Of a stretch of 26,004 nt of DNA, positions 3,171 through 25,774 are shown one piece after another (the stretch's first letter is position 1; each line of letters starts with the position of its first letter). The notes below the pieces were generated by a model. It did not search any database, was not told the origin of the DNA, and worked only from the letters and a program-made list of their open reading frames with translations. Made by a program: the position numbers and the translations under genes. The DNA lies in the IMG/VR virus record IMGVR_UViG_3300017903_001713, positions 1 to 26,004 of that record, one strand, 5' to 3'. This DNA comes from a virus (Duplodnaviria; Caudoviricetes).

Positions 3171-5501
3171 ATGGCAATTACTAAACTTATACAGAAAAGA
3201 ACCGATGTCCCAGGCCGCAGGCCGGGGATTAGTGACCTATCGCTCGGCGAAATCGCCATCAATACACATGATGGTAAGATGTTCATCAAGAGAGATCAAG
3301 ATGGATCGATCGATGTCATACAGGTCGGTGATGATGCGGTAGAAAATGTCTATTATGTTTCGAAGGGTGCGATAAAAGGAAATTTAGGTACATCACTTCA
3401 GGACGCATTTCAAACCCTTGATTCTGCAATATCGACAGTACAGTCACAGAACGCATTTACCTTTGATCGTGTGAAATGTAAGAGAGACTTTGGTCTTATC
3501 TTTGACGGTCTCTATCACGATATTGCTTTCGGAACAAACTACAATGCGGTAACTTCTGGTCTGTCTTATCAACGTGCAAGTGCAAATGTAGTAAGGGATC
3601 AACAGATTGTCGCGACACGTTCTGGTTTCAATGAGGCAAAAGGTGCGGTTGCATCGGTACCAGAAGTCAAGGAAAGTACGGGTGTTGATGGTGCACTACA
3701 ACGAAACAATCGACATTGGTCAGAAGTTGTAGACATTCTAGTCAACGGTGCAGTATCGACAGAAACGGCCGCAGACACACTTGTATTCCCCGCACCCTCA
3801 GTATTACCTTCAGCGGATGCAGATGATGCGGCAGTTATTCTACAGAACAACCGTGCATATCTAAAAAACGAAGCAATCGCATACATCACTGCAAACTATC
3901 CGTCCTTGACATATGACGAAACGAAGTGTCGACGTGACGTAGGTTTCATTGTAGACGCATTAACATTCGACATACTCTACGGTGGCACACACGGTGTGCA
4001 GATCATTGCACAGTCTTACTTTGTGGATGGTGTGTCTCAGTTACCCGCAGGGCAACAGGCACAGTCAGTTGCGACATACACACACCTTGGTGTCATCATT
4101 GACGAATTGGTACGTAATGCACTGACATCTAATCTAACATCGACCGGATTAAATTCTGGTGGTAATAGTGGTCAGTATGCCACATCGACTGAGGGTAATC
4201 AACTCAAGGATACTTTGGTTCCTATCTTTGTCGACGTGATTGATGATAACAATCTAAACAATCTTCCCGCAAAGGTAGAACCCAACTACACATCACGAGG
4301 TGTGAGTTCAGAATTACGTGATGCGATCACTGCCATTAAAGACCTCGAAGATCTTATCATCACACAGTCGGTAGAACGAGCTGCGACAACAGGAGACACG
4401 GTAATCTATCTGAAGTCAGGTGATTACACAATTAACAATCCGTTGAAGTTGCCACCCAAGACTGCAATCGTGGGAGACAACCTACGAACTGTGACCATTC
4501 GGCCGCAGAGTGTTGACTCAGATCTATTCTACATGGACAACGGCACGTTCATCAAAGATGTGACCTTCCGTGACCATCAAAGTCTTGCTGCATGTGTGGC
4601 CTTTGATCCAAGTGTGGACTCGCCTGGCGCAGGGCCGTTCATTATTCAGTCACCGTATGTTCAGAACTGTACGTCAATTACCACAGATGGTGTGGGTATG
4701 CGTATCGATGGTTCAAAGGCATCTGGTCTACGGTCGATGGTATCAGACGCCTTCACACAGTATAACGCAGCCGGTTTCGGAGTGCAACTATTAAATCGTG
4801 GTTATGCACAGTTGGTATCAATCTTTACAATCTCGACTGCAACATCTATCGAAGCGAAGTCAGGTGGTCAGTGTTCAATTGCAAACAGTAACGCATCGTT
4901 TGGTGACTTTGGTCTGGTAGCTGAAGGATCAAGTCCACCTCTGTATCGTGGACTCCTTGAATCAGATCAGAGTGTGTTTGCGGACGTAGTTCGTTTCACT
5001 GACATACGAAACCTTGACTCGTACAGTTACCTTGATGACTTGAATGCATTCAAGAAACCAAACTATAACGATGCAATTAAGTTTGATAGTGAAGACTTCT
5101 ACTATACGATTACAGATGTTGACTCTGTCAGCCCAGGCGTCTATGATCTGACATTCCAACCACCCATGAACGTTGCAAAACAAGGTGGTCAAAGAGTAAA
5201 CTTTCATCAACGGTCACAGATCACAACCTCATCTCACACGTTTGAATATGTGGGGTCAGGTACAAACACATTTACTGCGATTCCACAGAACGGTGGTATT
5301 CCTAGTCGTGCACGAGAAGTTGTGTTTGACTCTGCGAACCAAGAAGGTCTTGTAGTATTTACAAGTACGGATCAGTTGGGTGACTTCCGAATTGGTGCAG
5401 ACTTGACAATCAATAGGGCAGAAGGCCGGATCGAAGGTGAGACCTTTGAACGATCTCTGTTCGAAATTCTAACACCATACATCTTGGCACTTGAGGGTTA
5501 A
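3171..5501 (+). CDS. Large virion structural/fibre protein with a probable beta-helix domain and two helical KCxRD repeats
   Basis: Fibre-type N-terminus (GEIAINTHDGKMFIK). 'VYYVSK' and 'IYLKSGDYTINNPLKLPPKTAIVGDNLRTVTIRP' resemble a pectin-lyase-like start. Two 'KCxRDxGxIxDxLxxDIxxG' repeats. C-terminal 'FTSTDQLGDFRIG' as in cyanophage-type structural proteins. Confidence 0.7.
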   Translation: MAITKLIQKRTDVPGRRPGISDLSLGEIAINTHDGKMFIKRDQDGSIDVIQVGDDAVENVYYVSKGAIKGNLGTSLQDAFQTLDSAISTVQSQNAFTFDRVKCKRDFGLIFDGLYHDIAFGTNYNAVTSGLSYQRASANVVRDQQIVATRSGFNEAKGAVASVPEVKESTGVDGALQRNNRHWSEVVDILVNGAVSTETAADTLVFPAPSVLPSADADDAAVILQNNRAYLKNEAIAYITANYPSLTYDETKCRRDVGFIVDALTFDILYGGTHGVQIIAQSYFVDGVSQLPAGQQAQSVATYTHLGVIIDELVRNALTSNLTSTGLNSGGNSGQYATSTEGNQLKDTLVPIFVDVIDDNNLNNLPAKVEPNYTSRGVSSELRDAITAIKDLEDLIITQSVERAATTGDTVIYLKSGDYTINNPLKLPPKTAIVGDNLRTVTIRPQSVDSDLFYMDNGTFIKDVTFRDHQSLAACVAFDPSVDSPGAGPFIIQSPYVQNCTSITTDGVGMRIDGSKASGLRSMVSDAFTQYNAAGFGVQLLNRGYAQLVSIFTISTATSIEAKSGGQCSIANSNASFGDFGLVAEGSSPPLYRGLLESDQSVFADVVRFTDIRNLDSYSYLDDLNAFKKPNYNDAIKFDSEDFYYTITDVDSVSPGVYDLTFQPPMNVAKQGGQRVNFHQRSQITTSSHTFEYVGSGTNTFTAIPQNGGIPSRAREVVFDSANQEGLVVFTSTDQLGDFRIGADLTINRAEGRIEGETFERSLFEILTPYILALEG

Positions 5502-5504
5502 TCA

Positions 5505-5876
5505 ATGGCAATCCCATTAAATGAATTTAAAACGAGAACTGCGAAGTTGGTCTCTAAACCTGATGGTGGGTTTATCGGTGATAGTGATGTCATCTATACA
5601 ACTCCCAACGGGATTACTTGTGTTGTGTTGATGGCACAGGCCGCCAACACGTCTACGGATACAGTACACCAAGTCACTTTCCAACACTACGACACAACTA
5701 CAGATGTTGCGACCAACGTGGTTAAGAACTTTGATGTACAACCCAACGATGCAGCGGGTCTTGTTACAGGTAAACTCATTGTAGAACAAAACAATCAAAT
5801 GCGAGCATTCACAGAAGATTCGTCAGGAGAAGACATAAACTTCATCTTCTCATTCTTGCAGGCATTGAACGGTTAA
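5505..5876 (+). CDS. Small virion-associated beta-sandwich protein, hypothetical
   Basis: 123-aa ORF tightly packed between structural genes. 'VIYTTPNGITCVVLMAQAAN...GKLIVE' resembles small marine phage structural proteins. Confidence 0.65.
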   Translation: MAIPLNEFKTRTAKLVSKPDGGFIGDSDVIYTTPNGITCVVLMAQAANTSTDTVHQVTFQHYDTTTDVATNVVKNFDVQPNDAAGLVTGKLIVEQNNQMRAFTEDSSGEDINFIFSFLQALNG

Positions 5877-5880
5877 TTAG

Positions 5881-7977: not shown

Positions 7978-7980
7978 ATA
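7973..7980 (+). promoter_or_regulatory. T4-type late promoter variant (CATAAATA)
   Basis: 7/8 match over the upstream stop codon, followed by GGAG (7993-7996) and the gp13 start. Confidence 0.65.
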
Positions 7981-8003
7981 GTAGAAACTATTGGAGAATA
8001 TAA

Positions 8004-8753
8004 ATGGCATCGCCAACCTCTAGACAAACATTGATCGACTACTGTCTACGCCGTTTGGGTAGTCCCGTTATTGAAATTAACGTGGATACCGATCAGGTGG
8101 AAGATCGTGTGGATGATGCTGTTGCTCTGTTTCGGGAATACCATGACGATGCGACAGTCAGAATCTTTTTAAAACATCAAGTCACACAGACTGACATCGA
8201 TAATGGTTACATTCCTATCAGTGCAGACATACCGTTCATTCGTCGAGTCATGCCTCTGAACCCCACGTATTCTAACGTAAATATGTTTGACATTCGATAC
8301 CAAATGATGTTAAACTCTCTGGGAGACTTCATGCAGTTCGCGGGTGGTATGTCATACTACTACCAGTTGGAACAGTATCTTGACTATCTCGACAATCTTC
8401 TTACTGGCCAACCTATTACGACATTCTCACGTAATCAGAATCGTCTTTATCTACACGGTAATTTCGAAGATAAGGATGTCCTCGTGGATCAGTACATCAT
8501 CGCAGAGTGTTTCCAACTGGTGGATGACGCTACGTATAATATCTGGGATGATATCTTCTTGCGTGATTATACCACACAATGCATCAAACAGCAATGGGGT
8601 GCAAACCTTATCAAGTTTGAGGGGATGCAGTTGCCAGGCGGTGTGACCATGAACGGTCGACAGATCTATGATGATGCAACCGCAGAGATGCAGAGACTCG
8701 AAGAGAAGTTACGGCTAGAACACGAAATGCCAGTTGACTTCTTCATGGGATAA
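8004..8753 (+). CDS. gp13: Neck protein (T4 gp13-like)
   Basis: 'LIDYCLRRLGSPVIEINV...QVEDRVDDA', 'KQQWGANLIKFEGMQLPGGVTMNGRQIYDDA' and terminal 'PVDFFMG'. Synteny with gp14 and gp15. Confidence 0.93.
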   Translation: MASPTSRQTLIDYCLRRLGSPVIEINVDTDQVEDRVDDAVALFREYHDDATVRIFLKHQVTQTDIDNGYIPISADIPFIRRVMPLNPTYSNVNMFDIRYQMMLNSLGDFMQFAGGMSYYYQLEQYLDYLDNLLTGQPITTFSRNQNRLYLHGNFEDKDVLVDQYIIAECFQLVDDATYNIWDDIFLRDYTTQCIKQQWGANLIKFEGMQLPGGVTMNGRQIYDDATAEMQRLEEKLRLEHEMPVDFFMG

Positions 8754-8756
8754 TAA

Positions 8757-9641
8757 ATGGCCACTAATCTTTACTTCACACAAGGAACACACAACGAGCA
8801 GGTTCTCTACGAAGACATCGTCATTGAGTCTTTGAAGATGTTCGGACAGGATGTGTATTACATTCCTCGTGAAATTGTTAATCGAGACGGAATCTTTCAG
8901 GATGATTCTGTGTCTCGTTTTGACAATGCCTATCGTATCGAAATGTACATCGAGAATGTCGATGGGTTCGATGGAGAGGGTGATCTATTCACCAAGTTTG
9001 GAGTAGAGATTCGTGACGCGGCCACCTTTGTTGTTGCACGTCGACGATGGGGTAGTACTGTTGCACTTTATGAAAACGAAATATCTGAACCATTCTACAG
9101 GCCACGTGAAGGGGATCTTATCTACCTCACATTGTCCAAGTCATTCTTTGAGATCACACGAGTAGAGACAGAGGAACCCTTCTATCAGTTGAAGAACCTT
9201 CCCGTCTTCAAGATGCGATGTGAACTCTTTGAGTACAACGACGAAGACTTTGATACGGGCATCGAAGAAGTTGATGATCTGGAAGCCGTACACGCATACC
9301 AGACCGTTCTTACATTCTCGACTATCACTGGAACGTTTGAGATCGGTGAAGAGGTTACACAGACTAACACTGATTATACCATGAAAGGCGAAGTTGTCAA
9401 GACTGATTTGTCAAATTCTGCCGCGAAGAAGGTATACATCTCTCATGCGGGTGCGACCGATGGTGAGTACCATGAGTTCACATTGTCCGCAGCCATCACC
9501 GGAAGTAACTCTGGTGCAACAGGTACACCAACAGCGATCGGAGAAGATCTACAGAACGATTCGATGAATAGTGACTTTGACAATATCGGAGACGCACTGT
9601 TAGACTTCTCTGAGAGTAATCCGTTTGGAGATCCGCAATAA
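8757..9641 (+). CDS. gp14: Neck protein (T4 gp14-like)
   Basis: 'ESLKMFGQDVYYIPRE', 'GFDGEGDLFTKFGVEIRD', 'RPREGDLIY', 'PFYQL' and terminal 'DFSESNPFG'. Confidence 0.93.
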   Translation: MATNLYFTQGTHNEQVLYEDIVIESLKMFGQDVYYIPREIVNRDGIFQDDSVSRFDNAYRIEMYIENVDGFDGEGDLFTKFGVEIRDAATFVVARRRWGSTVALYENEISEPFYRPREGDLIYLTLSKSFFEITRVETEEPFYQLKNLPVFKMRCELFEYNDEDFDTGIEEVDDLEAVHAYQTVLTFSTITGTFEIGEEVTQTNTDYTMKGEVVKTDLSNSAAKKVYISHAGATDGEYHEFTLSAAITGSNSGATGTPTAIGEDLQNDSMNSDFDNIGDALLDFSESNPFGDPQ

Positions 9642-10918
9642 TGTTTGGAGATCATTTCTATCATCAACGGATTCGTAATGCGGTGGCCGTATTTGGCTCG
9701 TTGTTCAATAATATAAATGTGGTACGTAAGAATACCAGTGGTGCATCAATAAGTCAAGTAAAAGTTCCACTTTCTTATGCACCCAAGCGTGACTTTCTTT
9801 CACGTCTCGATGCGATGACAGACGGTGAACAGGCTGAACGATCTATCGCAATCAAGTTGCCTCGCATGTCGTTTGAGATTGTTGCTATGCAGTACGACGC
9901 ATTGCGTCAATTACCAAAAGTAAACAATTGCACAGTACCAGGCTCAACCTATGGGGAGTCAAGTCAGGTATACACTCCCGTACCCTACAACATCAACTTT
10001 CAGTTGAATGTCTATGCAAAGGGACAAGACGATGCACTACAGATTGTAGAACAGATTCTACCTTACTTCACTCCGTCATATACTGTCACCATGAAACCCT
10101 TAGAAGACTTTGACGGTATCAAAGAAGACACTCCCGTCACACTACAGGGTATCACATTCTCAGATGACTATGAGGCGCCACTAGAGGCACGTCGTACCGT
10201 CATCTACACATTAGACTTTGAGATGAAGATCTCGATGTACAAGGCAATCGCAACCGCCACACCAATCATTACACAGTACGATATCGAGAATGCAGATCTG
10301 GATGGTAATGTATTCTTCAATATCGTGGACAGTGCAGCGATTGCAACGAACACAATTAAGACCATCAACGAAGATACAAAGTTGACGGTGGATAACTATC
10401 AGGTCAACAATGCACCATTGACGACACATGGATTGCAACTGGGATCAACCACACCATCGAATGGTACTGCGACGGTAACGTATTCAAAACGTTTAGTATC
10501 TGCGAGTGGTATCGTCGTTGCTCAGGGTGAATATACATATCTACCAGACAGTGACTTCAATGGTACAGATACATTCACCATTGACTTGTTGTACGGAGAT
10601 TCTGCAAGTCCACAAAAACTATCGCAGACAATCAACGTCACCATCAATGCGGTGCAGGATGTAACGGCAACGATATTGGGGCCATTCGCAGTAACGATTG
10701 GTGCACCATACGTACTTGATCTTACAACTAATGACAACTTTGCTTCTGCGACGTACAGTCTAATTAGTCAGGGTACTCGTGGTACCGCATCAATTACCAG
10801 TGGGGGTAACCTTACTTACAACGCATCTACGGCCGGAACAGATGAAATTGTTTACGGTGTTACACCAACAGGTGGAACGAGAGAGAATGTTACTGTAAGG
10901 TTCACCAATTCAGTATAA
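9641..10918 (+). CDS. gp15: Tail sheath stabiliser/terminator (T4 gp15-like) with a C-terminal Ig/cadherin-like extension
   Basis: 'FYHQRIRNAVAVFGSLFNNI', 'KVPLSYAPK', 'LPRMSFE', 'DDALQIVEQILPYFTP'. About 200 extra C-terminal residues include 'YTYLPDSDFNGTDTFT'. Confidence 0.92.
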   Translation: MFGDHFYHQRIRNAVAVFGSLFNNINVVRKNTSGASISQVKVPLSYAPKRDFLSRLDAMTDGEQAERSIAIKLPRMSFEIVAMQYDALRQLPKVNNCTVPGSTYGESSQVYTPVPYNINFQLNVYAKGQDDALQIVEQILPYFTPSYTVTMKPLEDFDGIKEDTPVTLQGITFSDDYEAPLEARRTVIYTLDFEMKISMYKAIATATPIITQYDIENADLDGNVFFNIVDSAAIATNTIKTINEDTKLTVDNYQVNNAPLTTHGLQLGSTTPSNGTATVTYSKRLVSASGIVVAQGEYTYLPDSDFNGTDTFTIDLLYGDSASPQKLSQTINVTINAVQDVTATILGPFAVTIGAPYVLDLTTNDNFASATYSLISQGTRGTASITSGGNLTYNASTAGTDEIVYGVTPTGGTRENVTVRFTNSV

Positions 10919-10948: not shown

Positions 10949-12172
10949 ATGGCAGGCATAAAAATCAGTGATTTGGACGAGTTGTCGACAGCTGATGCAA
11001 CTGATTCGGATCTTCTTGTCATCGTAGATGTCAGTGCCGATAAGACAAAGAAGATTGAGTACAGGACACTCTTAGCGTCTAATATTCAGGAAGCAGAAAC
11101 GGCGAAGGAACTAATAGTTAACGGTACTGCAACTCTGACTGATCGCGTAACAGACAATAATGAACCGTATCATGTTATCATGAGTGCACGGGGTGACCTA
11201 GAAAGATCAGGTAGTTTAGAAGCATCTGGGGCGGACTCATGTTTCATCGATGTCGGCAGATTCAACTACTTGCCCGATTCATCCGCACTGTATGTATCTC
11301 AAGGTATTAGAACCGCAGGTGGTAATGGACAACTTCAAGGGATTGCAGATCAGGCCTTGGTCGCAGATTCCGCAAACTTTGATCTGACATCAATCAATGA
11401 TGTGATTGATAATTTTACTGGTCTGGTAACTGGTCAGGTTCTCAAGTGGAATGGATCTGAGTGGGCAAATGCGAACGATAATACAGGTGACGTTGGTCAG
11501 GGTGTAATTGCGAAACTAATTAATACTAAGTCTGCGGGTGATGCTGATGCATCTTTCCTCGTGCCTTTCGTTGCTGCGGTAGGTACAGACTCAGTAGAAG
11601 TAGACAACCAGTTGACTTACAATCCAAATTCTAACACACTGACAACCACAACGTTTTCTGGTAACGCAACAACTGCAACTTTTGCAACGACTGCAACGAC
11701 TGCAACTCAGTCATATCAACTTGCAACAGATAGTGTGGGTGCAACGGGTACGTACTATCTGATTACTCGTGAACAACGAAACCCAGGCTTCGACAGTGCA
11801 AACACAAGTAGTGCATTAACATTCGACGCATCAACAGAAACTCTCGCTGCGACAAACTTCAGTGGAGATGGTTCAAGTTTAAACAACGTGGCGGCCTCAT
11901 CTGCGACTAACGCAACAAACGTGGCGATCACAACTGCAACTAACGACGCAACATTCTATGTTCACTTTGGTAATGCAACGTCTGGTAACGATGGCGTCAA
12001 TGTTAACACAAGTTTGACATATAATCCAGCAGATAATCTGTTGACATCTAATCTAACGTACACTGCTGATAGTGCGGGACTCTGGAACGGATCATCACCC
12101 ACAACCGTGGATAGTGCGATTGATCGTCTCGCCTTTGTAGTTAAGTCACTGAACGGTGGGGTAGGAGCATAA
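10949..12172 (+). CDS. Tail fibre-like protein
   Basis: N-terminal 'KISDLDEL...DSDLLVIVDVS...TKKI' module, 'GQVLKWNGSEW' fibre motif, three 'LT(Y/F)' repeat units and Ala/Thr-rich linkers. Confidence 0.7.
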   Translation: MAGIKISDLDELSTADATDSDLLVIVDVSADKTKKIEYRTLLASNIQEAETAKELIVNGTATLTDRVTDNNEPYHVIMSARGDLERSGSLEASGADSCFIDVGRFNYLPDSSALYVSQGIRTAGGNGQLQGIADQALVADSANFDLTSINDVIDNFTGLVTGQVLKWNGSEWANANDNTGDVGQGVIAKLINTKSAGDADASFLVPFVAAVGTDSVEVDNQLTYNPNSNTLTTTTFSGNATTATFATTATTATQSYQLATDSVGATGTYYLITREQRNPGFDSANTSSALTFDASTETLAATNFSGDGSSLNNVAASSATNATNVAITTATNDATFYVHFGNATSGNDGVNVNTSLTYNPADNLLTSNLTYTADSAGLWNGSSPTTVDSAIDRLAFVVKSLNGGVGA

Positions 12173-15899: not shown

Positions 15900-18800
15900 A
15901 TGCATAATAACTTTTTGGACAAAAGACGTAGACACCTACGTCTACAACCTGATCAGGTGGATCTGGCCTTACCAGAACACTTTGCAGCGTCGTATCCAAA
16001 ATTTATTAATCTTCTATCGTTCTATTATGAGTTTCAGGGTGAACAGAAGGCGACGGAACTTCTCCATCATCTCTTTGCGTCACGAGATATCACAGAAACC
16101 GACATCACTCTTCTCTCATACATTGAGGATGAGTTGTTATTGGGTGATGCATACTTTGAGAGTTTTGCAACAGGTGATGCAGAGAAACGTGCAGCTGCAA
16201 ACTTCTCCAACACATTGTTCCGATCAAAGGGAACTAAGTTTGCAATCGAATGGTTCTTCCGTTCGTTCTATGGTATCGACGCTGAAATCATCGAAACGAA
16301 TCAACGTATTTTTGAGTTAGGTAAACCTGAGTCATCCATTGGCCCCGACTCAGTACATTTTTTAACTGACGACAAGTTGTATCAGACATTTGCGTATCTG
16401 GTACGTTCGTCTATTCCTATCACAGAATGGGAAGAATTATTTAAGTTGTTTGTACACCCCGCAGGAATGTATCTTGGGGGAGAACTATTAATCGAAGATG
16501 TGGTTCAGGCCAGATTGGCATCTGAAGCATTTGATAGTTCAGTTTCAAGTCGTTTGTCTCCTACATATACTTTGGTAACTCAACCTTTCAGTACCGATTC
16601 CGAAGGTACACGGTTTGATTTTTCTTTGCAGGCAACCAATCTACCAAACAATCAGGGTCAGTACAAATACTTTATTAACAACTTAACCACGTCAGAAGAC
16701 GACTTTGCATTTGGTGCGGACTCGACTTTCCCCGATAGTGCAAACAAGCAGACGTTCCTATTGTCACCCAATATGAGTGAAACTGCGGCCGTTGGAATTG
16801 TGACTATTCCCACACTCCACGACTCAGATGAGACTGAAGGTACAGAAAGTTTTCAGGTTTTCTTTGAGGACGAAGAGGGACGTGAAGTAATCAATCAGAC
16901 CATAATCCTAAACGATATTGTCAGTGTTTTCTCAATCAGCGACGACACAGTAGGAAACGAAATCGATGAAGGGGACACTGTTACCTTCACCGTGACTGCG
17001 GAGGCCGGTACAGTACCAAACAACGGTAGTACAACTTTGGAATATCAGGTATTTCCGATCTCTGCGGACAGTGTTGATTTCGCGTCGACTGCATTCCCTT
17101 CAACCGGAACTAGAATTCCATTTAATATACGAGACGACTCAGGTTCTTTCACTGTGTCTACCGTGGTTGATGGTACTTCTGGTGGGGGGGATGACAACGA
17201 AACATTCAACGTCAAGATCTATACACTGTCTGGTATTGAGAAGGCTACGTCGGATACAATCACGATTAACGATCTGAACCCCCAAGACGAATACTCATTG
17301 ACTCCCGCAACCGTGACAATAACGGAAGGGGATGATATCGAAGTCACCCTAGCGACACCGGAGTCTATGATTGGTCGAGACGTGACATACACAATCACTG
17401 GTACTGATAGTAGGGTTCCGAACAAAGCCGGAACACTGACCGTGACCAGCGCGAGTGAGACGTTTACTCTGTCGACCACTTCTTCAAGTGATGTCTATCA
17501 AGGTGCAACCAGTGAGACGATCACTCTCACATCAAGTACCAGTGGTTTCTTTAGTCCAGAACTAACAGACACCGTTGCACTGACAATCAATGATGCAGAC
17601 GAAACATTCGATGACATTGTTGTTGATCTGGCCGGTCAGACAGAAGGTGACACAATCACATTCACAATTACGGGTACTAATCTTCAGGACGGTAACCGTG
17701 CGAAGTATTACATCGATCACGGTGACACAACGAATGCAGACTTCTCTGTCGCACCACCCACAACCGTAGGAACTGCGGCTGCCATATCGTTTACGTCAAA
17801 TTCTGGAACAGTCTCCTTGACATTTGCGGAGAATGGTGATGAAAACAATGAAGACTTTGAGATTGTCATCCTTGATAACGATGACGTTGAAGTTCTTCGA
17901 ACAAGTTACACAATCATTGGTGTGCCTGGGCCGGGTGATCCCCCCGCGCCAGAATATACATTGACACCTCGTTCAACTTCTGTGAATGAAAATGGGTCTG
18001 TTACTGTAGACTTTGAAGTTGTAAATGATGATGATGGATCATATTACTACTATGTTTCTGGTTCTGGTATCACTAGTGATGACTTCAGTTCTGGATATGC
18101 CCCATCAAGTTCAAGGCAAGAGATTACAGTAACATCCGGAATCTCTACAATTGATTTTACTTTAGCCGAAGATCAGGATCGAGAAGGTACAGAAACTTTC
18201 CGTGTGTTTGTTTCGAAAACATCTACGAGTGGTGTTATTGCACAGTCTTCAGAGATATCGATCACTGACACCTCAACACAAGCCTACACAGTCAGTCTGT
18301 CGGATGTTACGGAAGGTTCAACGTTGAACTGTGCAGTAATAGGTAATTTAGCGAATGCCAGTGCAGAGACCATTTATGTGACATTCTCTGGTGCAGGTGT
18401 AACTGATCGTATCACGACATTACAACCCGCGGCACAATCTGTAGGTGCGAATCAGTCTATAATATTCTCTTCTACAACAACTGTAGATGCTGCAGTCAAT
18501 GGGGATCAGACGATTACTGCAACCGCACGAATCGGATCTTACTCTGGTACGATTGTGGGAACAGACACTTCGACAATGTCGGATGCGGCTGCGTCATTTA
18601 CCTTGACAAACAATGGGCCTAAAGATGAGGGTCAGACAGTAACCTTCACCTTTGGAGGTACCAACGTTCCAACGGGTACATATTATTACTGGTTAAACGA
18701 CATTCAACCAGTGCAACAAAATCCTCTGTCATCAACCGCAGCTGGATCTGCAATCATTAGTGTGGTTAATTCAACGGGTGTTAACGTCGGAGATGAAGTT

Positions 18801-19721
18801 CGTGGTGATATCGGTTTCCCCGCAGGAACTACTGTTGTGTCGAAAACATCACAGACAATAACTATGTCTGACAATAACACAGAATCATCTGCTCGTACTA
18901 CTGGTGATTATTACTTTGCAACCCCTACTGTGTGGGAAGACTTTACTGTGTCTACTAATCCACCTTACGGTGAGTTCTCACATACCACTAATACCAGTAC
19001 AACGTTCGATGTTGACATTGCAGACACAGATGATTTGGAAGACGGACTTGAAGTAGACTACACCATGACGGTGAACAGTTCGAACATTGGCCCAGCAGTG
19101 AAGACAAATGTTTTCACAATAAATGATCCCGATGTAGATGACACACCGAATGTACAGAGAGGATCTCTTACTGATCCAGATTCTTACACTTGTATTGGTA
19201 GTGGAAATGATCTGGACACCGCAGCGCCTGAGGACATGCCAACGTGTTCACTCGTTCTTCTAAACACTGGTGCGATAGAAGTCACTCTAGATAATGATGA
19301 TCAAGGAGATCAAACACTAGCTAAAGGTAATTGGATAGACGATACAGATCCAGCAAACTTTACAGCCAGTGATTATGAGTGCATTGCAACCTTTGTGGAA
19401 GGTTCTAACAACAACTCTCAATATCCTGGCGACTTTGGTGTGGCAGAAAATCTAGGATCAAGTCGGGCATGGCAGGTTAAACCACCCAATCCAGCAGATG
19501 ATCAAATTGAAATTGCTTTCGTTGGGTTTGATCTTCTCATACGTCATGTCGATACTGTTAATCGTCCAAGTAATGCAATTACTACACGCATAAATCTGAC
19601 TGCGAATGCAACTGACTTCTCAACTGGTAGTTTACCAGGCGGTGGTGACCCCATTGGCCCGGGCGGTGACCCAGGCCAAGATCCAAACTTGAATCCTGAA
19701 ATTTCGAACAATCCCAGCTAA
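15900..19721 (+). CDS. Baseplate wedge gp7-like N-terminal domain fused to a long array of Calx-beta/Ig-like domains
   Basis: 'LPEHF...YPKFI.LL..YYEF', 'FRSKGT..AIEWFFRSFYG' and 'YQTFAY...W...FKLFVHPAGM' resemble the gp7 core. Repeated 'EGDT(V/I)TFT', 'EGTE(S/T)F' and 'ITIND' motifs follow. Confidence 0.7.
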   Translation: MHNNFLDKRRRHLRLQPDQVDLALPEHFAASYPKFINLLSFYYEFQGEQKATELLHHLFASRDITETDITLLSYIEDELLLGDAYFESFATGDAEKRAAANFSNTLFRSKGTKFAIEWFFRSFYGIDAEIIETNQRIFELGKPESSIGPDSVHFLTDDKLYQTFAYLVRSSIPITEWEELFKLFVHPAGMYLGGELLIEDVVQARLASEAFDSSVSSRLSPTYTLVTQPFSTDSEGTRFDFSLQATNLPNNQGQYKYFINNLTTSEDDFAFGADSTFPDSANKQTFLLSPNMSETAAVGIVTIPTLHDSDETEGTESFQVFFEDEEGREVINQTIILNDIVSVFSISDDTVGNEIDEGDTVTFTVTAEAGTVPNNGSTTLEYQVFPISADSVDFASTAFPSTGTRIPFNIRDDSGSFTVSTVVDGTSGGGDDNETFNVKIYTLSGIEKATSDTITINDLNPQDEYSLTPATVTITEGDDIEVTLATPESMIGRDVTYTITGTDSRVPNKAGTLTVTSASETFTLSTTSSSDVYQGATSETITLTSSTSGFFSPELTDTVALTINDADETFDDIVVDLAGQTEGDTITFTITGTNLQDGNRAKYYIDHGDTTNADFSVAPPTTVGTAAAISFTSNSGTVSLTFAENGDENNEDFEIVILDNDDVEVLRTSYTIIGVPGPGDPPAPEYTLTPRSTSVNENGSVTVDFEVVNDDDGSYYYYVSGSGITSDDFSSGYAPSSSRQEITVTSGISTIDFTLAEDQDREGTETFRVFVSKTSTSGVIAQSSEISITDTSTQAYTVSLSDVTEGSTLNCAVIGNLANASAETIYVTFSGAGVTDRITTLQPAAQSVGANQSIIFSSTTTVDAAVNGDQTITATARIGSYSGTIVGTDTSTMSDAAASFTLTNNGPKDEGQTVTFTFGGTNVPTGTYYYWLNDIQPVQQNPLSSTAAGSAIISVVNSTGVNVGDEVRGDIGFPAGTTVVSKTSQTITMSDNNTESSARTTGDYYFATPTVWEDFTVSTNPPYGEFSHTTNTSTTFDVDIADTDDLEDGLEVDYTMTVNSSNIGPAVKTNVFTINDPDVDDTPNVQRGSLTDPDSYTCIGSGNDLDTAAPEDMPTCSLVLLNTGAIEVTLDNDDQGDQTLAKGNWIDDTDPANFTASDYECIATFVEGSNNNSQYPGDFGVAENLGSSRAWQVKPPNPADDQIEIAFVGFDLLIRHVDTVNRPSNAITTRINLTANATDFSTGSLPGGGDPIGPGGDPGQDPNLNPEISNNPS

Positions 19722-19734: not shown

Positions 19735-20091
19735 ATGAGTGAAAACAAGAACATAAAAGAAGACTATGAAACGTCTCGCGATACTTATCTCGAATTGATG
19801 GAGACGGGTAAACGTGGTCTTGATCTCATGGTTGAGGTTGCACGAGAGTCTGAACATCCTCGTGCGTTTGAGGTATTGTCCGGTATGATCAAGAATGTGG
19901 CCGAAGTCACAGACAAACTAATGGACTTGAACAAAAAGAACAAGGACATTACTACCGAACCAAAACAAGAAGAACAAAAGGCAATCACTAATAATAATGT
20001 GTTTATAGGTAGTACTACTGATCTGCAAAGAATGTTGCAGAACCATGAAGAGAAGGTGATTGATGTTAGCTCAACGGATGACCAACGATAG
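19735..20091 (+). CDS. gp16: Terminase small subunit (T4 gp16-like)
   Basis: 'DYETSR...ESEHPRAFEVL...NNNVFIGSTTDLQRML'; directly upstream of and overlapping the large subunit. Confidence 0.92.
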   Translation: MSENKNIKEDYETSRDTYLELMETGKRGLDLMVEVARESEHPRAFEVLSGMIKNVAEVTDKLMDLNKKNKDITTEPKQEEQKAITNNNVFIGSTTDLQRMLQNHEEKVIDVSSTDDQR

Positions 20092-21682
20092 TTATCTTGG
20101 CAACGTAAATGTAAAGCGTGATGGGGTACAACAGCAGTGGACTGAGGATCAGGTTGTTGAATACGCTAAATGTATGCGAGATCCTGCCTATTTTGCGCGG
20201 ACTTATGTTAAGATTATATCACTCGATAAGGGACTTGTCAACTTCGATCTTTATCCGTATCAGGAAAAGATGTTCGATCATTTTAATGACAATCGCTTCT
20301 CGATCGTACTCGCCTGTAGACAGAGTGGTAAGAGTATTTCGTCCGTTGTTTATCTTCTATGGTACGCTATATTTCACCCTGAAAAGACTATCGCCGTCCT
20401 CGCTAACAAGGGGGCTACAGCGCGTGAAATGCTCGCCAGAGTCACCTTGGCACTTGAGAATCTACCTTTTTTTCTACAACCTGGCTGTCGAGCACTCAAC
20501 AAGGGGTCTATTGAGTTTAGTAATAATAGTCGCATTATTGCTGCTGCCACTAGTGGTTCTTCTATACGGGGTATGTCTGTTAACCTGCTTTTTCTTGACG
20601 AGTTTGCTTTTGTTGAGCGAGCAGCTGAGTTCTATACTTCAACTTATCCCGTTATCTCAGCGGGTAAAGATACGAAAGTTATTATCACTTCCACGGCGAA
20701 TGGTATTGGAAATTCGTTCCATAAAATCTGGGAAGGGGCGGTACAACAGACAAACGAATATAAAGCGTTTACGGTAAACTGGTGGGACGTTCCGGGCCGT
20801 GATGAGAAATGGAAAGAAGAAACCATATCGAACACGTCACAAATGCAGTTCGATCAGGAATTCGGTAACACATTCTTTGGTACCGGAGACACACTGATCA
20901 ATGCAGAGACACTTCTCAATCTTCGTGCCAATCCACCTAAAAAATTATTAGAAGGCGGAGACCTCAAGGTCTACGATGAAACGCAACCTAAACACGATTA
21001 CATAATAACTGTCGATGTAGCGAAGGGTCGAGGGTTGGACTATAGCACCTTTTCGGTAATTGATGTAACTACACGACCGTTTAAACAGGTCGCAGTGTAT
21101 CGAAACAATCGTATCTCTCCAATACTCTTCCCTGATATTATATATAAAATTGCGAAAGCCTACAACGATGCCTATGTCATTGTTGAGTCAAATGATGCTG
21201 GACAAGTGGTGTGCAATGGGTTATACTACGAACTAGAGTATGACAACATCCACCTAGAGTCTGCGATCAAGAAGAATGCGATTGGTATTGAGATGAATCG
21301 CAAGGTCAAGCGTCTTGGTTGTTCGGGTATTAAGGATCTACTCGAAGAGAATAAACTCGACATCGTCGATGAGAATACCATCCTAGAAATCTCCACCTTT
21401 GTATCCAAGGGTCAATCCTATGAGGCCAGTGATGGGAACCATGATGACCTCATGATGAATCTGGTCATGTTCGGTTACTTCATATCAACACAGACCTTTA
21501 CGGACATGACAGACATCAATCTCAAACAGATGATCTTTGAGAAACAACAAAGAGAGATCGAGGATGCGATCGTGCCGTTTGGATTTATTGACGATGGTAG
21601 TGATGCAATCCGACACATTGAGGAACAAGAGTCGTTCAAGACCCCTGAATGGGCCATCCCGTGGGACGTTGAAACCTATTAA
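20063..21682 (+). CDS. gp17: Terminase large subunit (T4 gp17-like)
   Basis: Walker A 'CRQSGKS', Walker B 'LLFLDEFAF', coupling motif 'STANG', nuclease motifs 'VDVAKG' and 'HDDLMM'. Start placed at ATG 20063 after AAGGTG; the ORF track uses TTG 20060, and ATG 20078 is also possible. Confidence 0.97.
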   Translation: MLAQRMTNDSYLGNVNVKRDGVQQQWTEDQVVEYAKCMRDPAYFARTYVKIISLDKGLVNFDLYPYQEKMFDHFNDNRFSIVLACRQSGKSISSVVYLLWYAIFHPEKTIAVLANKGATAREMLARVTLALENLPFFLQPGCRALNKGSIEFSNNSRIIAAATSGSSIRGMSVNLLFLDEFAFVERAAEFYTSTYPVISAGKDTKVIITSTANGIGNSFHKIWEGAVQQTNEYKAFTVNWWDVPGRDEKWKEETISNTSQMQFDQEFGNTFFGTGDTLINAETLLNLRANPPKKLLEGGDLKVYDETQPKHDYIITVDVAKGRGLDYSTFSVIDVTTRPFKQVAVYRNNRISPILFPDIIYKIAKAYNDAYVIVESNDAGQVVCNGLYYELEYDNIHLESAIKKNAIGIEMNRKVKRLGCSGIKDLLEENKLDIVDENTILEISTFVSKGQSYEASDGNHDDLMMNLVMFGYFISTQTFTDMTDINLKQMIFEKQQREIEDAIVPFGFIDDGSDAIRHIEEQESFKTPEWAIPWDVETY

Positions 21683-21684
21683 AT

Positions 21685-21692
21685 GATAAATA
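21685..21692 (+). promoter_or_regulatory. T4-type late promoter variant (GATAAATA)
   Basis: 7/8 match in the gp17-gp18 gap; AAAGGA ribosome-binding site before 21757. Confidence 0.65.
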
Positions 21693-21756
21693 ATCGTATT
21701 GATTAACTTTCCGTATAATGTAACTTATCATAACTCAACGATAAAAGGATACGATT

Positions 21757-23490
21757 ATGGCTCTATTACAGTCTGCATCGCCTAACGTTGCCATTAAAGA
21801 GGTGGATCTGTCGGGCATTGTACCAGCAGTAACTACAACTACTGGTGCGTTTGTCGGCGATTTCGCGTGGGGCCCCGTTCAACAACCAATCTTTGTAGGA
21901 TCAGAAGCAGAGTTGGTTGCTAATTTCGGAGACCCAACGTTCTCAAACGATAGTTCAGCAATTGAGTTCCTTTCTGCTAACCAATTCCTCAAGTACTCAA
22001 GCAATATGTTTGTTGTTCGTGAAGCTACTACTGCTGCGAAGAACGCTGTTGACAGTGGTACGTCTCTTCTCATCAAGAATCGTGATGATTTTGATGCAGG
22101 TAAGACAATCACTGGCGGTGGTAACTTTGCTGCTAAGTATGCGGGAAGTGCAGGAAACTCTCTCAAAATTTCAATCGCAGGTAACGGCCTCGGCTGGGAT
22201 GGATGGACGTATGCATCTTCATTTGATGCAGAGCCAGGAACATCATCATATGTTTCTGCACGATCACCCGACAGCGCTGTTGCAAATGACGAAGTACACG
22301 TCGCAATCATTGACGAAGATGGTACTTTCTCAGGAGCTCCTAACACAGTTCTTGAAACATTTGCAAACGTTTCTCTTGCGACTGACGCAAAAACCTCAGA
22401 CGGAACAACGAACTACCTTCTCGATGTATTGAATGATCGTTCGTCATATGTCTGGGGTGTAAGTCACCCAGCATTCTATGGAACTGCTGGTGCAGCTTCT
22501 GTGTTCGATAGTGACAACCGAGCAGCAACTGGATTAGATTCTGCTGGAGATGATTTCACTCAATCATTCACTGGTGGTGCAAACTCTGGTTCTCTTGCTC
22601 AGGCTCAGTACGAAACAGGTTTCAATCTGTTCGAAGATGAAAACACAATTCAGGTCGACTTCTTGATCGCACCTGGCCTTGCAGACGCAACTGCTCACAA
22701 GACTGTTGTAAACGATCTTGTTACAATTGCAGAAGGACGTAAGGATTGTGTAGTAGTCACTTCACCACATCGTGCAGCGGTTGTTAATGTAAATGACAAC
22801 ACCACGATCACAAATAACATCACAGCAAATGTTGACTTCACGCGATCTTCTTACTTGGTTGTTGACAATAACTACCTCAAGGTCTATGACAAGTACAATG
22901 ATAAGTATCAGTTTATTCCTGCTGCTTCATCAACTGCTGGTACCATGGCATCGACTGACAATGTCGCTGCACCTTGGTTCTCGCCTGCGGGTACACGACG
23001 CGGTCTCTACCGTGGTGTAACATCGCTTGCGTATAACCCAACCAAGTCACAACGTGATACCCTATATAAAGCAGGGGTTAACCCAATTGCGAACTTGCCA
23101 GGCCAAGGTATCGTTCTCTACGGAGACAAGACTTTCTTAGGTCGACCTTCAGCATTCGATCGAATTAACGTTCGTCGTTTGTTCTTGGTCATCGAAAGAG
23201 CTATCAAAGGTGCCGCACAAAACGTACTGTTTGAATTCAACGACGAATTCACCCGTGCAGAGTTTGTGAACATCGTAGAACCTTTCCTCAGAGAGATCCA
23301 AGGGCGTCGAGGTATTACTGACTTCCGTGTAGTTTGTGACGATACAAACAACACTGGTCAGATCATCGACACAAACTCATTCGTCGCGTCTATCTTTGTG
23401 AAGCCTGCACGTTCGATTAACTACGTAACATTGAACTTTGTTGCGGTACGAACTGGTGTAGACTTCGAAGAAGTAGTTGGCGCAGTATAA
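21757..23490 (+). CDS. gp18: Tail sheath protein (T4 gp18-like)
   Basis: 'SPNVAIKEVDLS', 'FAWGP', 'PWFSPAG..RG', 'SAFDRINVRRLF', 'FEFNDEFTR', 'KPARSINYVTLNFVA'. Confidence 0.97.
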   Translation: MALLQSASPNVAIKEVDLSGIVPAVTTTTGAFVGDFAWGPVQQPIFVGSEAELVANFGDPTFSNDSSAIEFLSANQFLKYSSNMFVVREATTAAKNAVDSGTSLLIKNRDDFDAGKTITGGGNFAAKYAGSAGNSLKISIAGNGLGWDGWTYASSFDAEPGTSSYVSARSPDSAVANDEVHVAIIDEDGTFSGAPNTVLETFANVSLATDAKTSDGTTNYLLDVLNDRSSYVWGVSHPAFYGTAGAASVFDSDNRAATGLDSAGDDFTQSFTGGANSGSLAQAQYETGFNLFEDENTIQVDFLIAPGLADATAHKTVVNDLVTIAEGRKDCVVVTSPHRAAVVNVNDNTTITNNITANVDFTRSSYLVVDNNYLKVYDKYNDKYQFIPAASSTAGTMASTDNVAAPWFSPAGTRRGLYRGVTSLAYNPTKSQRDTLYKAGVNPIANLPGQGIVLYGDKTFLGRPSAFDRINVRRLFLVIERAIKGAAQNVLFEFNDEFTRAEFVNIVEPFLREIQGRRGITDFRVVCDDTNNTGQIIDTNSFVASIFVKPARSINYVTLNFVAVRTGVDFEEVVGAV

Positions 23491-23501
23491 GGAGAAGATA
23501 A

Positions 23502-24029
23502 ATGGCAATTCTAGGCGTAGATGACTTTAAGTCAAAACTCCGTGGTGGGGGCGCTCGTGCGAATCTATTTCGTTGCACAATTAACTTCCCCGGCTACGCA
23601 GGCGGTGACGCAGAACTGACATCATTCTTGTGTAAGACTGCACAGTTGCCACAATCACAGGTAGGTTCATTCATCGTGAACTTCCGTGGTCGTGAACTCA
23701 AGATGGCGTCAGAGCGTACATTTGAACCTTGGACAGTAACCATCCTGAACGACACAGATTTTGCAATCCGTGACGCAATGGAGCGTTGGTCAAATGGTAT
23801 CAATGGTCACTCATCAAACACTGGTTTGGTGAACCCTGTTGACTATCAGACTGACTTGATTGTTGAACAACTTGATCGTGATGAGTCCGTGATCAAGCGT
23901 GTTGACATTCGTGGTGCTTTCCCTGAGACAGTAGGCCCAATCGCACTGAGTTATGATACTCGTGGTGAGATTGAGACATTCGACGTAACCTTTGCTTACC
24001 AATATTGGGAATCAAATACAACGTCTTAA
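23502..24029 (+). CDS. gp19: Tail tube protein (T4 gp19-like)
   Basis: 'FKSKLRGGGARANLF', 'FRGRELK', 'RTFEPWTVTILNDTDF.IR.A.E.W', 'F.VTFAYQYWE'; AAGGAG ribosome-binding site. Confidence 0.96.
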   Translation: MAILGVDDFKSKLRGGGARANLFRCTINFPGYAGGDAELTSFLCKTAQLPQSQVGSFIVNFRGRELKMASERTFEPWTVTILNDTDFAIRDAMERWSNGINGHSSNTGLVNPVDYQTDLIVEQLDRDESVIKRVDIRGAFPETVGPIALSYDTRGEIETFDVTFAYQYWESNTTS

Positions 24030-24035
24030 AACGTC

Positions 24036-24043
24036 TCTAAATA
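24036..24043 (+). promoter_or_regulatory. Possible late promoter variant (TCTAAATA) for the portal gene
   Basis: 7/8 match to TATAAATA in the gp19-gp20 gap, immediately 5' of the terminator hairpin. Confidence 0.55.
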
Positions 24044-24045
24044 CA

Positions 24046-24075
24046 GGGGAGACTTCGGTCTCCCCAGTTTTTTTT
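24046..24075 (+). terminator. Rho-independent terminator with a C(UUCG)G tetraloop
   Basis: GGGGAGAC-TTCG-GTCTCCCC perfect 8-bp stem (24046-24065) followed by AG and eight T residues. Confidence 0.92.
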
Positions 24076-24091
24076 ATTTTAGGAAAGGTAG

Positions 24092-25774
24092 ATGGCGGAA
24101 GAAAACGGTAGCGTACTAAAGTTATTTGGATTTGAAATCAAACGTGCTGGTAAATCTGAAACGGGCACACAGAAACTTGCATCTCCAGTAATACCCACAG
24201 ATCCAGACGGTGCTGGTTATACAACCACTGGCGCGGGATACTATGGTCAGTATATTAATCTAGGAGATGATCAGGCGAAAGATAACTCGCAGTTGATCAT
24301 GCGTTATCGTGGGGTTGCACATCACCCCGAAGTAGATATGGCGATCGAAGAGATCGTTAACGAAACAATTGTTGCATCCGAAACAGAATCATCGGTCGAA
24401 ATCGCTGTAGATGACATTGAAGCTCCCGATAAGATTAAGGATGTAATACGACAAGAATTCGAACAGATCGTTTCCATGTTGAAGTTCAATGACATTGGCC
24501 ACGATATTTTCCGTTCGTGGTACGTTGATGGACGATGTGTTCATCACCTACTCGTAAACGAATCAAACATCAAGGCGGGTATTCAAGAGATCCGTCACAT
24601 TGACTCTGCACGTATTCGCAAAGTCAAAGAAGTCAAGTACAAGAAAGATCCTAAGACCAACGTCAAGATTGTAGATAAGGTTGATGAGTACTACATCTAT
24701 GATGAGAAACCAGGCCAGTCTAACAGTTCAGTAAAGATTTCTACTGACGCAATCTCATATGTCACGTCTGGTGTACTTGACGAATCCAAGAAGAAAGTAT
24801 TATCACACCTACACAAGGCACTGAAGCCCATCAACCAGTTGCGTATGATGGAAGACTCCCTTGTGATCTATCGTCTTGCTCGTGCACCAGAACGACGTAT
24901 CTTCTACATTGATATTGGTAACCTTCCTCGTGGTAAGGCAGACCAATACATGAAAGATATCCAGTCCAAGTACCGTAACAAGATTGTGTACGATGCAAAT
25001 ACTGGCACACTCAAAGATGACCGTAAGCATATGTCTATGCTTGAAGACTTCTGGTTACCCCGTCGTGAAGGTGGCCGAGGTACAGAGATTTCAACACTGC
25101 CAGGCGGCGATAACCTTGGACAGATCGACGATATAATTTATTTTCAAAAGAGATTGTATCGTTCACTCAATGTTCCAGTGAATCGTCTTGAACAGGAGGC
25201 GCAGTTCTCGCTCGGTCGTTCTACTGAGATTTCACGAGATGAAGTGAAGTTTCAGAAGTTTGTAGACCGACTGCGCCGCCGTTTCTCTATGATGTTCTTG
25301 GGTATTCTGCGAAAGCAACTTGTACTCAAGGGCATCATTACCGAACAAGATTGGGATGAGTGGAAAGATAATATTTACATTGACTATCAGAAAGACAACC
25401 ACTTCACCGAACTCAAAGAGATGGAGATCTATCGTGAACGTGCAGGTCTTCTCAATGAGATGGCTGGTTTCGTTGGAGAGTACATCTCTAAAGAATGGGC
25501 GATGCGTAACATCATGCGTTTCTCCGATGATGATATGGAAGAGATACAGAAAGAAATCGATGGTGAGATCTCATCGGGTGAAGTGGAAGATCCGAATGCA
25601 GAACCCGAAGAAGAACAACCCAAGGAACAGAAACCTGTTCCCGTTCAGGTAGTGCCTGAGAAACCCAAAGAAGAAAAACCCGAACCTAAACAAGAACGTT
25701 ATATACCCTCTAATAATGATGAACTGACAGAAGAATTGACACGGTACATGGCGAAGTTAAATGAGCAAGATTGA
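24092..25774 (+). CDS. gp20: Portal vertex protein (T4 gp20-like)
   Basis: 'WYVDGR', 'LHKALKPINQLRMMEDSLVIYRLARAPERRIFYIDIGNLP', 'MLEDFWLPRREGGRGTEISTLPGG', 'EISRDEVKF.KF'. Confidence 0.97.
   Translation: MAEENGSVLKLFGFEIKRAGKSETGTQKLASPVIPTDPDGAGYTTTGAGYYGQYINLGDDQAKDNSQLIMRYRGVAHHPEVDMAIEEIVNETIVASETESSVEIAVDDIEAPDKIKDVIRQEFEQIVSMLKFNDIGHDIFRSWYVDGRCVHHLLVNESNIKAGIQEIRHIDSARIRKVKEVKYKKDPKTNVKIVDKVDEYYIYDEKPGQSNSSVKISTDAISYVTSGVLDESKKKVLSHLHKALKPINQLRMMEDSLVIYRLARAPERRIFYIDIGNLPRGKADQYMKDIQSKYRNKIVYDANTGTLKDDRKHMSMLEDFWLPRREGGRGTEISTLPGGDNLGQIDDIIYFQKRLYRSLNVPVNRLEQEAQFSLGRSTEISRDEVKFQKFVDRLRRRFSMMFLGILRKQLVLKGIITEQDWDEWKDNIYIDYQKDNHFTELKEMEIYRERAGLLNEMAGFVGEYISKEWAMRNIMRFSDDDMEEIQKEIDGEISSGEVEDPNAEPEEEQPKEQKPVPVQVVPEKPKEEKPEPKQERYIPSNNDELTEELTRYMAKLNEQD

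Follow-up and report, generated by a model that had tools for sequence, protein, structure and literature searches.

This report concerns the bases that flank CCNGG, a type II restriction target (ScrFI, SsoII, DsaV), in a 26,004-nucleotide stretch of viral DNA (Duplodnaviria; Caudoviricetes), positions 1 to 26,004 of the IMG/VR record IMGVR_UViG_3300017903_001713. This whole stretch is referred to as the window. Its long open reading frames (ORFs) lie on the plus strand throughout. PHROG matches identify a T4-type late module with gp13, gp14, gp15, terminase, sheath, tube and portal, and the products encoded there include a head-tail adaptor, head closure protein, sheath stabiliser, small and large terminase subunits, sheath, tube and portal. 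Tail fibres and tailspike-like proteins are encoded upstream of the module, and several ORFs have no family match. By its T4-type gene set and gene order, the phage is a T4-like marine myovirus of the Kyanoviridae type. Its portal protein is 65% identical to that of phage C48C1 and about 50% identical to those of Methylophilales phage Melnitz, pelagiphages and cyanomyoviruses; a Megablast search with 9 kb of the window gave no match among cultured phages. Family matches of the ORFs revealed no DNA-modification gene in the window, in agreement with the first-pass annotation of this DNA, and no gene of the Mom family or of the DruA-like GNAT kind discussed below. The gene search of this genome covers these 26 kb; genome-wide checks were run on relatives instead.

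The window contains 26 CCNGG sites, from 3210 to 25100. Twenty-five begin at the first codon position of a long plus-strand ORF and encode Pro-Gly, and the remaining one lies in frame 2 at 19658 and overlaps the in-frame site that starts at 19659. All 26 have a G on the 5' side or a C on the 3' side and therefore read GCCNGG or CCNGGC. Such sites are called flanked here, and those with neither base (HCCNGGD) unflanked. The glycine codon that follows proline is GGC at 20 of the 25 sites, GGG at two, GGA at two and GGT at one, although GGT dominates among all 669 glycine codons of the window (GGT 385, GGA 156, GGC 72, GGG 56); the probability of at least 20 GGC in 25 given a frequency of 72/669 is 1.3e-15. 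In each of the five Pro-Gly pairs without GGC the preceding codon ends in G, and five further sites have both flanks. The first-pass annotation had counted about 26 sites, 25 of them in-frame Pro-Gly and one overlapping (19658), and had pointed to the 20 GGC codons and to the G before each exception. All of this is borne out, the coordinates it gave for the exceptions (3221, 14607, 17924, 17930, 22233) being those of the flanking G. The sites are listed below together with the sole copies of two related words, all entered without strand (strand.).

3210..3214: CCAGG, Pro-Gly in frame, Gly codon GGC (3' C)
3222..3226: CCGGG, Pro-Gly in frame, Gly codon GGG, 5' G (GCC)
4623..4627: CCTGG, Pro-Gly, both flanks (GCCTGGC)
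5133..5137: CCAGG, Pro-Gly, GGC
8634..8638: CCAGG, Pro-Gly, both flanks
9938..9942: CCAGG, Pro-Gly, GGC
11783..11787: CCAGG, Pro-Gly, GGC
12991..12995: CCCGG, Pro-Gly, GGC
13456..13460: CCAGG, Pro-Gly, GGC
14608..14612: CCTGG, Pro-Gly, Gly codon GGA, 5' G
14998..15002: CCTGG, Pro-Gly, both flanks
17925..17929: CCTGG, Pro-Gly, Gly codon GGG, 5' G
17931..17935: CCGGG, Pro-Gly, Gly codon GGT, 5' G
19425..19429: CCTGG, Pro-Gly, GGC
19635..19639: CCAGG, Pro-Gly, GGC
19658..19663: GCCCGGGC, two overlapping CCNGG, at 19658 (the sole out-of-frame site, 5' G) and 19659 (Pro-Gly, GGC)
19671..19675: CCAGG, Pro-Gly, GGC
20480..20484: CCTGG, Pro-Gly, GGC
20792..20796: CCGGG, Pro-Gly, GGC
22234..22238: CCAGG, Pro-Gly, Gly codon GGA, 5' G
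22672..22676: CCTGG, Pro-Gly, GGC
23098..23102: CCAGG, Pro-Gly, both flanks
23589..23593: CCCGG, Pro-Gly, GGC
24710..24714: CCAGG, Pro-Gly, GGC
25100..25104: CCAGG, Pro-Gly, both flanks
19227..19233: sole CCTNAGG of the window (CCTGAGG), 5' G, follows the GCC flank rule
18427..18432: sole CCGCGG of the window, 3' C, follows the rule; the evidence for this word is weak

Depletion of CCNGG in the window

Word counts were compared with 1000 codon shuffles that kept all proteins and the codon usage, a null for which the first-pass annotation had asked. CCNGG occurs 26 times in the window against 54.5±5.0 in the shuffles (lowest shuffle 40), and HCCNGGD is absent against 40.1±4.8 (lowest 25), while CCNGGC stands at 20 against 7.4±2.6. 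The loss of unflanked sites extends to all reading frames, with none among the Pro-Gly pairs, where 17.1 are expected, and none in the other two frames, where 22.5 are expected; flanked copies in these two frames number 1 against 6.8. Of 136 gapped 5-mers, CCNGG ranks lowest or second-lowest in the window and in five related contigs, two of which do not obey the flank rule. The strong negative selection on CCNGG that had been proposed earlier is supported both by the shuffles and by this rank. Apart from the 1 against 6.8 of the window, flanked CCNGG is still depleted five- to six-fold in free reading frames (6 against 31.7, 6 against 35.3 and 3 against 19.9), which argues that the flank is a second-best rescue and not a sign of neutrality.

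The avoidance of restriction sites by phages is said to have been described by Rusinov and colleagues in 2018. The window resembles such ordinary avoidance in that palindromic type II words are missing, GGWCC and CTGCAG being depleted as well. It differs in that avoidance is conditional on a one-base flank and that sites forced by the amino acid sequence are systematically re-flanked. GGWCC is absent from the window against 25.2±3.9 in the codon shuffles, CTGCAG occurs twice against 10.5 and AGCT 22 times against 57; codon junctions are poor in the trinucleotide AGC/GCT, whose observed/expected ratio (o/e) there is 0.53 in the window and 0.42-0.70 in its relatives G001-G003. Two words are over-represented, namely GGSCC, which contains GGCC (20 against 8.7), and GATC (188 against 133).

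Spread of the flank rule in relatives and to other words

The sample of relatives consisted of 80 IMG/VR loci around portal relatives, which with the window gives 81 sequences. Five long contigs were taken whole; for metagenome contigs, among them that of a relative (96.7 kb) whose portal is 94% identical, DNA was read within 10-kb flanks. A sequence was called rule-positive if it had at least five CCNGG and none unflanked, and rule-negative if it had at least three unflanked. By this measure the trait is bimodal, with 50 positive sequences, 20 negative ones and 11 with too few sites to call. The 50 rule-positive sequences hold 657 CCNGG with none unflanked, whereas 250 of 343 are unflanked in the 20 rule-negative ones; since related sequences share sites by descent, pooled counts overstate independence, and the de-duplicated figure for the former is 412 distinct 12-nucleotide contexts. 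Three of the whole contigs (148, 115 and 105 kb) have 0 of 71, 0 of 57 and 0 of 50 sites unflanked, where base composition would predict 159, 162 and 115, and the metagenome relative with the 94% identical portal has 0 of 22. The first-pass annotation had named many HCCNGGD sites elsewhere in the genome as an observation that would speak against its proposal, and these three whole contigs have none.

Rule-negative relatives treat the same dipeptide differently. In two rule-negative contigs, CCNGG is purged from free frames and the Pro-Gly sites are left unflanked (52 and 49 sites). GGT or GGA is placed after proline, and GGC is found in just 7 of 68 and 4 of 57 pairs. The two rule states are interleaved on a tree of 114 portal rows, with at least 11 changes among 40 positive rows, and the window falls in an all-positive clade of 12 within a clade of 15 positives and five sequences that avoid RGCY. 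This interleaving looks like two alternative answers to one restriction environment. At the protein level, the Pro-Gly dipeptide has an o/e of 0.57-0.60 in the rule-positive contigs G001-G003 and of 0.77-0.78 in the rule-negative contigs G004 and G005.

The flank rule is not confined to CCNGG. In the rule-positive relatives CCTNAGG is found at 31 sites against 164 expected, and all of its 26 distinct contexts are flanked, compared with 6 of 21 in the rule-negative relatives (Fisher 7e-8). In the rule-positive relatives, 68-71% of the copies of the control words CCGG, CCNNGG and CCWWGG are unflanked, as is usual. CCGCGG was considered as extra support and set aside as too weak, being flanked at 7 of 7 distinct rule-positive sites but also at 6 of 8 rule-negative ones.

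A second kind of evidence comes from words that carry GCC themselves. GGCC, which has GCC on both strands, is unavoided in rule-positive genomes when compared with codon shuffles (observed/expected 65/30 in the window, and 212/161, 87/117 and 91/84); AGCC falls to about half of expectation and AGCT lower still. Every RGCY word is avoided by the rule-negative sister lineages (in G004 AGCT 0/372, AGCC/GGCT 0/349 and GGCC 13/103), and the pooled Markov ratio for GGCC is 1.06 in rule-positive sequences against 0.15 in rule-negative ones. Words are tolerated in proportion to the number of strands that carry GCC. The RGCY purge in G004 (L101-L106) and G005 (L107-L111) suggests that their hosts have a CviJI-like restriction activity against RGCY.

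Several further words are missing from the relatives. GGWCC occurs once against 732 in 32 of them, CGWCG is absent against 316 expected in 14 rule-positive phages, CGCG is absent against 157 in G001 (L081-L088) and CGNCG stands at 10 against 167 in G003 (L095-L100); surviving CGNCG copies are mostly CGCCG/CGGCG, which contain GCC. In the 50 pooled rule-positive sequences, several 6-bp palindromes are nearly absent as well (GACGTC 1, GCATGC 4, CGTACG 5 and ACGCGT 6, each against 164).

Cultured phages were sampled as about 41 kb from each of 16 Kyanoviridae, with Melnitz-3 and syn9 also read as whole genomes. The complete genome of the Methylophilales phage Melnitz-3 (141,372 bp) has 74 CCNGG and 17 CCGG, the latter against 172 expected, with none of either unflanked, and no GGWCC at all. 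Whole syn9 has 205 of 273 CCNGG unflanked, one CCGG, and 34 GGCC against 299. A gene for a DruA-like protein (376 residues, PF14236, phrog_19197) is carried by some of these phages. Seven cyanophages that lack it have no CCGG (64-109 expected) and keep GGCC at 0.05-0.14 of expectation, whereas carriers tolerate GGCC at an o/e of 0.15-0.88 (8 carriers against 8 non-carriers, Mann-Whitney P = 0.0009). For the most part, carriers that avoid CCGG retain flanked copies alone (S-CAM9 9/9, S-PRM1 10/10, S-T4 2/2, HTVC008M 9/10, S-CREM1 1/1), and 24 of 26 CCNGG are flanked in S-SSM7; S-B68 is an exception without avoidance. Synechococcus WH 7803 is the recorded host of S-PRM1, S-T4 and S-BM3 alike, yet their footprints differ. 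In S-PRM1 and S-T4 GGCC has an o/e of 0.83 and 0.84 and the surviving CCGG are all flanked, while S-BM3 has no CCGG and a GGCC o/e of 0.08. That phages of one host differ in this way favours a cause carried by the phage and weighs against a property of the host enzyme or a host methylase.

A predicted GCC/GGC modification and its rivals

Directly observed in the window are the depletion, the distribution over reading frames and the flank rule; the spread of the rule in relatives is likewise observed, as is its recurrence at CCTNAGG and, in cultured relatives, at CCGG. The footprint is best read as restriction-site purging combined with the rescue of unavoidable sites under a putative GCC/GGC-directed modification. 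This would be a variant of known phage GpC-context cytosine systems, with a possibly novel writer. More precisely, CCNGG appears to have been purged wherever synonymous codons allow, and the 26 survivors are probably shielded by a predicted GCC/GGC DNA modification that would block a host CCNGG enzyme. The selective agent would be restriction, in that a host enzyme cutting CCNGG would drive the loss of the word from all avoidable positions. Unavoidable Pro-Gly sites would be re-flanked to GCCNGG or CCNGGC, where the GCC/GGC-directed modification would overlap them and block the enzyme. The modified base would lie inside the site, either as its first C (the middle base of G-C-C) or as the opposite-strand G paired to it, and the mark would be written by a phage-encoded enzyme. 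Rescue by such a mark had been proposed in the first-pass annotation. Its flank rule is now extended to CCTNAGG (26/26) and CCGG (17/17 in Melnitz-3, and in cultured cyanophages), while the mark itself stays a prediction. A protective mark fits better than the flank preference of one enzyme, as is favoured by the same flank rule at CCTNAGG and CCGG, the depletion in free frames, the tolerance of GGCC, and the interleaved states and same-host differences.

Several observations weigh against this reading, besides the shared descent already mentioned. The case for a modification consists of sequence statistics throughout. Rule-positive loci L016-L018 and L163-L166 still avoid GGCC, which a GCC mark should protect, and sites that start with CT (CTAG, CTWAG, CTGCAG) show no excess of G flanks. 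With no rescue at GCT, the mark would be GCC-specific and narrower than the published GC[C/T]. One of the five CCTNAGG sites of Melnitz-3 is unflanked. Among 60 records from closer relatives of the window, of which three are 85-87% complete, none gave PF00145, PF01702, PF01555 and PF02086 were each found in 0 of 5 related contigs, and a Pfam scan of 158 of the 199 ORFs of G001 revealed several 2OG-Fe(II) oxygenases and no recognised DNA-modifying enzyme. When G001 genes were compared with Melnitz-3, C48C1, G002 and G003 (to be present) and with G004, G005 and syn9 (to be absent), no gene was common to all rule-positive genomes and absent from rule-negative ones; absence from most contigs is weak evidence, because most contigs are fragments. 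The DruA-like gene is not necessary, given that Melnitz-3 (full rule) and C48C1 (63 of 80 CCNGG flanked) lack it. Nor is it sufficient, as seen in six carrier loci with at least three unflanked CCNGG and in the carrier S-SM2, where CCGG is flanked at 5 of 14 sites and unflanked at 9 of 14.

One alternative dispenses with modification altogether. Host enzymes would require a base other than G before CC on both half-sites, making HCCNGGD the effective site, and one flank would spoil a half-site and so prevent double-strand cutting. In the CCGG/CCNGG family, PfoI, SexAI, Cfr10I and BsaWI are enzymes whose recognition extends to an outer base. That either flank suffices fits a homodimer in need of two good half-sites, and the failure to find a writer gene common to all rule-obeying genomes is in its favour. 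However, three sites (CCNGG, CCTNAGG and CCGG) would need an identical outer-base veto, and flanked sites are predicted to be neutral, in contrast to their observed depletion in free frames. The link between GGCC tolerance and the rule is left unexplained, and syn9 and six other cyanophages keep 0 or 1 CCGG of any flank, whereas cyanophages of the same host strain keep only flanked ones. We therefore regard an outer-base requirement of host enzymes as unlikely.

That the GCC mark comes from a methyltransferase widespread in the population of hosts, and not from the phage, is decidedly unlikely. In its favour, no gene of the phages follows the rule through all genomes, and none of the 60 related records has a C5-methyltransferase. 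This is countered by the differing footprints of S-PRM1 and S-T4 on the one hand and S-BM3 on the other on a single Synechococcus strain, by the repeated switches of the rule among close relatives on the portal tree, and by the C5-methyltransferase that Melnitz-3 has of its own.

A third possibility is that a DpdA of the kind found in coliphage CAjan inserts preQ0 or another 7-deazaguanine at GGC. CAjan carries DpdA-dependent preQ0 at GA and GGC, as the excerpted text of Kot et al. 2020 (PMC7544227) has it, matching what the first-pass annotation had stated. Like the predicted mark, this is a phage DNA modification of short motifs that includes GGC, and in the same source it blocks HaeIII. Moreover, GGC is the complement of GCC, and sequence statistics cannot separate a modified G from a modified C. 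Unlike CAjan, the relatives of the window gave no TGT/DpdA homologue (PF01702) in five contigs that are 52-87% complete, although all 14 control genomes matched, and G001 has a sub-threshold QueC-like match alone. GGWCC, which contains GA, is totally avoided in the window and nearly so in the 32 relatives, and a GA and GGC mark of the CAjan kind is thereby excluded; a deazaguanine at GGC only is not covered by that exclusion. The preQ0 reading put forward in the first-pass annotation is not supported, and the chance of a DpdA-type writer is slim.

A translational codon-pair preference for CCN-GGC, suggested by the GGC codons in 20 Pro-Gly pairs, is refuted and has virtually no standing, since the G at the third position of the preceding codon in all five exceptions makes this a strand-symmetric rule at the DNA level, unflanked CCNGG is also missing from the other two frames, and rule-negative relatives use GGT or GGA after proline.

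Candidate writers and known systems

If a GCC/GGC mark is present, the writer may differ between lineages or be of a kind not yet recognisable. For Melnitz-3, the candidate writer that fits is a CmoX-like C5-cytosine methyltransferase. Its PF00145 gene adjoins the DNA polymerase gene, and a Mom-family gene and an ATP-grasp ligase are also there. The nearest homologues of the methyltransferase among cultured phages are genes of S-CRM01 and S-B43 (37-39% identity), the latter presumably being the published GC-motif carboxymethyltransferase CmoX. According to excerpts of Yang et al. 2025 (PMC12783734), CmoA, CmoX and CmoY of Synechococcus phage S-B43 produce 5-carboxymethylcytosine at a GC motif and then a glycine amide. 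That system is like the predicted one in being a GC-context cytosine modification that blocks restriction in a T4-like marine phage, and in the homologue and adjoining ATP-grasp ligase of Melnitz-3. It is unlike it in that the motif in those excerpts is GC and not GCC, that CmoA was not seen in Melnitz-3, and that the closer relatives of the window gave neither gene. A GC-context cytosine methyltransferase, which the first-pass annotation had offered as its alternative, fits Melnitz-3; the 60 records of closer relatives gave no PF00145 gene.

Metavirome phages offer a second comparison. As far as excerpts of Burke et al. 2021 (PMC8256090) describe them, their C5-methyltransferases are specific for GpC[C/T] and coupled to TET dioxygenases and glycosyltransferases. 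The likeness is a three-base, phage-encoded cytosine mark that includes GCC, and a mark of the specificity described there would hit the first C of GCC-flanked CCNGG, CCGG and CCTNAGG and both strands of GGCC. The difference from the published motif is that rescue is found here at GCC and not at GCT, along with the lack of PF00145 in the relatives.

For the wider clade of the window, the best remaining candidate is a DruA-family GNAT with a modelled Mom-like structure, which would lie outside the window if present; we put it forward tentatively, with less than even confidence. The gene is present in 10 of 55 related records, all rule-positive, and 472 of the 510 CCNGG in 80 more loci with the gene are flanked. 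Sequence and profile searches of the protein against solved structures gave nothing below E 0.4, and Foldseek returned weak GNAT matches alone (E 2e-3 and worse). The model (pLDDT 75) has a GNAT fold, with FemA and Mu Mom as the top matches on a second look, tied with many GNATs at Z 8-9; Mu Mom aligns at Z 8.8 over 179 of 222 residues. One GenBank record labels the protein 'methylcarbamoylase mom'. In six cyanophages (L345-L347, L352-L354) the gene occupies the gp44-gp62 clamp-loader slot, and in six others (L348-L351, L356, L357) the same slot holds a DNA methyltransferase. The Mom family proper (PF25680) was found in 5 of 22 records, all rule-positive, and is absent from the rule-obeying contigs G001 and G002. 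Phage Mu Mom is a GNAT that moves glycine from Gly-tRNA to N6 of adenine in double-stranded DNA, as stated in excerpts of Silva et al. 2026 (PMC13219725). The DruA-family protein of the rule-obeying relatives is predicted to share the fold, while the adenine modified by Mom in that account differs from the C or G in GCC/GGC on which the footprint would need a mark.

It is conceivable, though doubtful, that in T4-like marine phages the DruA-family GNAT places a novel modification other than a methyl group on the C or G of GCC/GGC and that whole lineages have recoded every Pro-Gly pair under it. Were this protein the writer in most lineages, it would represent a new class of sequence-specific DNA base modification, and a function would be assigned to a widespread viral family. 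More generally, the flank rule would serve as a genome-wide readout of the predicted modification, giving its GCC/GGC specificity from sequence alone. Abundant marine T4-like phages would have changed many times between two ways of countering restriction, one being to carry the mark and the other to purge RGCY. Cultured systems for a test are Melnitz, S-PRM1, S-CAM9, S-T4 and HTVC008M on the one side and S-BM3 and syn9 on the other.

Two other candidates were rejected. A 'TnsA-like endonuclease' seemingly confined to rule-obeying contigs proved to be the head completion protein gp4 of T4 (phrog_218). Self-avoidance of a nuclease encoded by the phage was also set aside, as no nuclease gene tracks the rule and GGCC tolerance would go unexplained.

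In four lineages, the gene immediately upstream of the DruA-like one encodes a conserved 270-residue protein with invariant EHD and QDHH motifs; in G001 and C48C1 it adjoins the DNA polymerase gene. The model of the 270-residue protein (pLDDT 59.6) gave no meaningful fold match. The loci that hold this gene and the DruA-like gene are as follows.

G003, 97763-99748: 270-residue protein and DruA-like gene
L116, 1239-3248: 270-residue protein and DruA-like gene
L117, 605-2614: 270-residue protein and DruA-like gene
L180, 4362-6348: 270-residue protein and DruA-like gene

At the end of the window, an ORF at 25761-26003 overlaps the end of the portal gene and runs off the window; its collagen-like Gly-X-Y repeats match tail-fibre families. 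In Melnitz-3 (L365, 10686-16876), genes for curli-type CsgF and CsgG, a curlin-repeat protein, a FecR-like protein and a CHASE2-guanylate/adenylate cyclase stand in a row.

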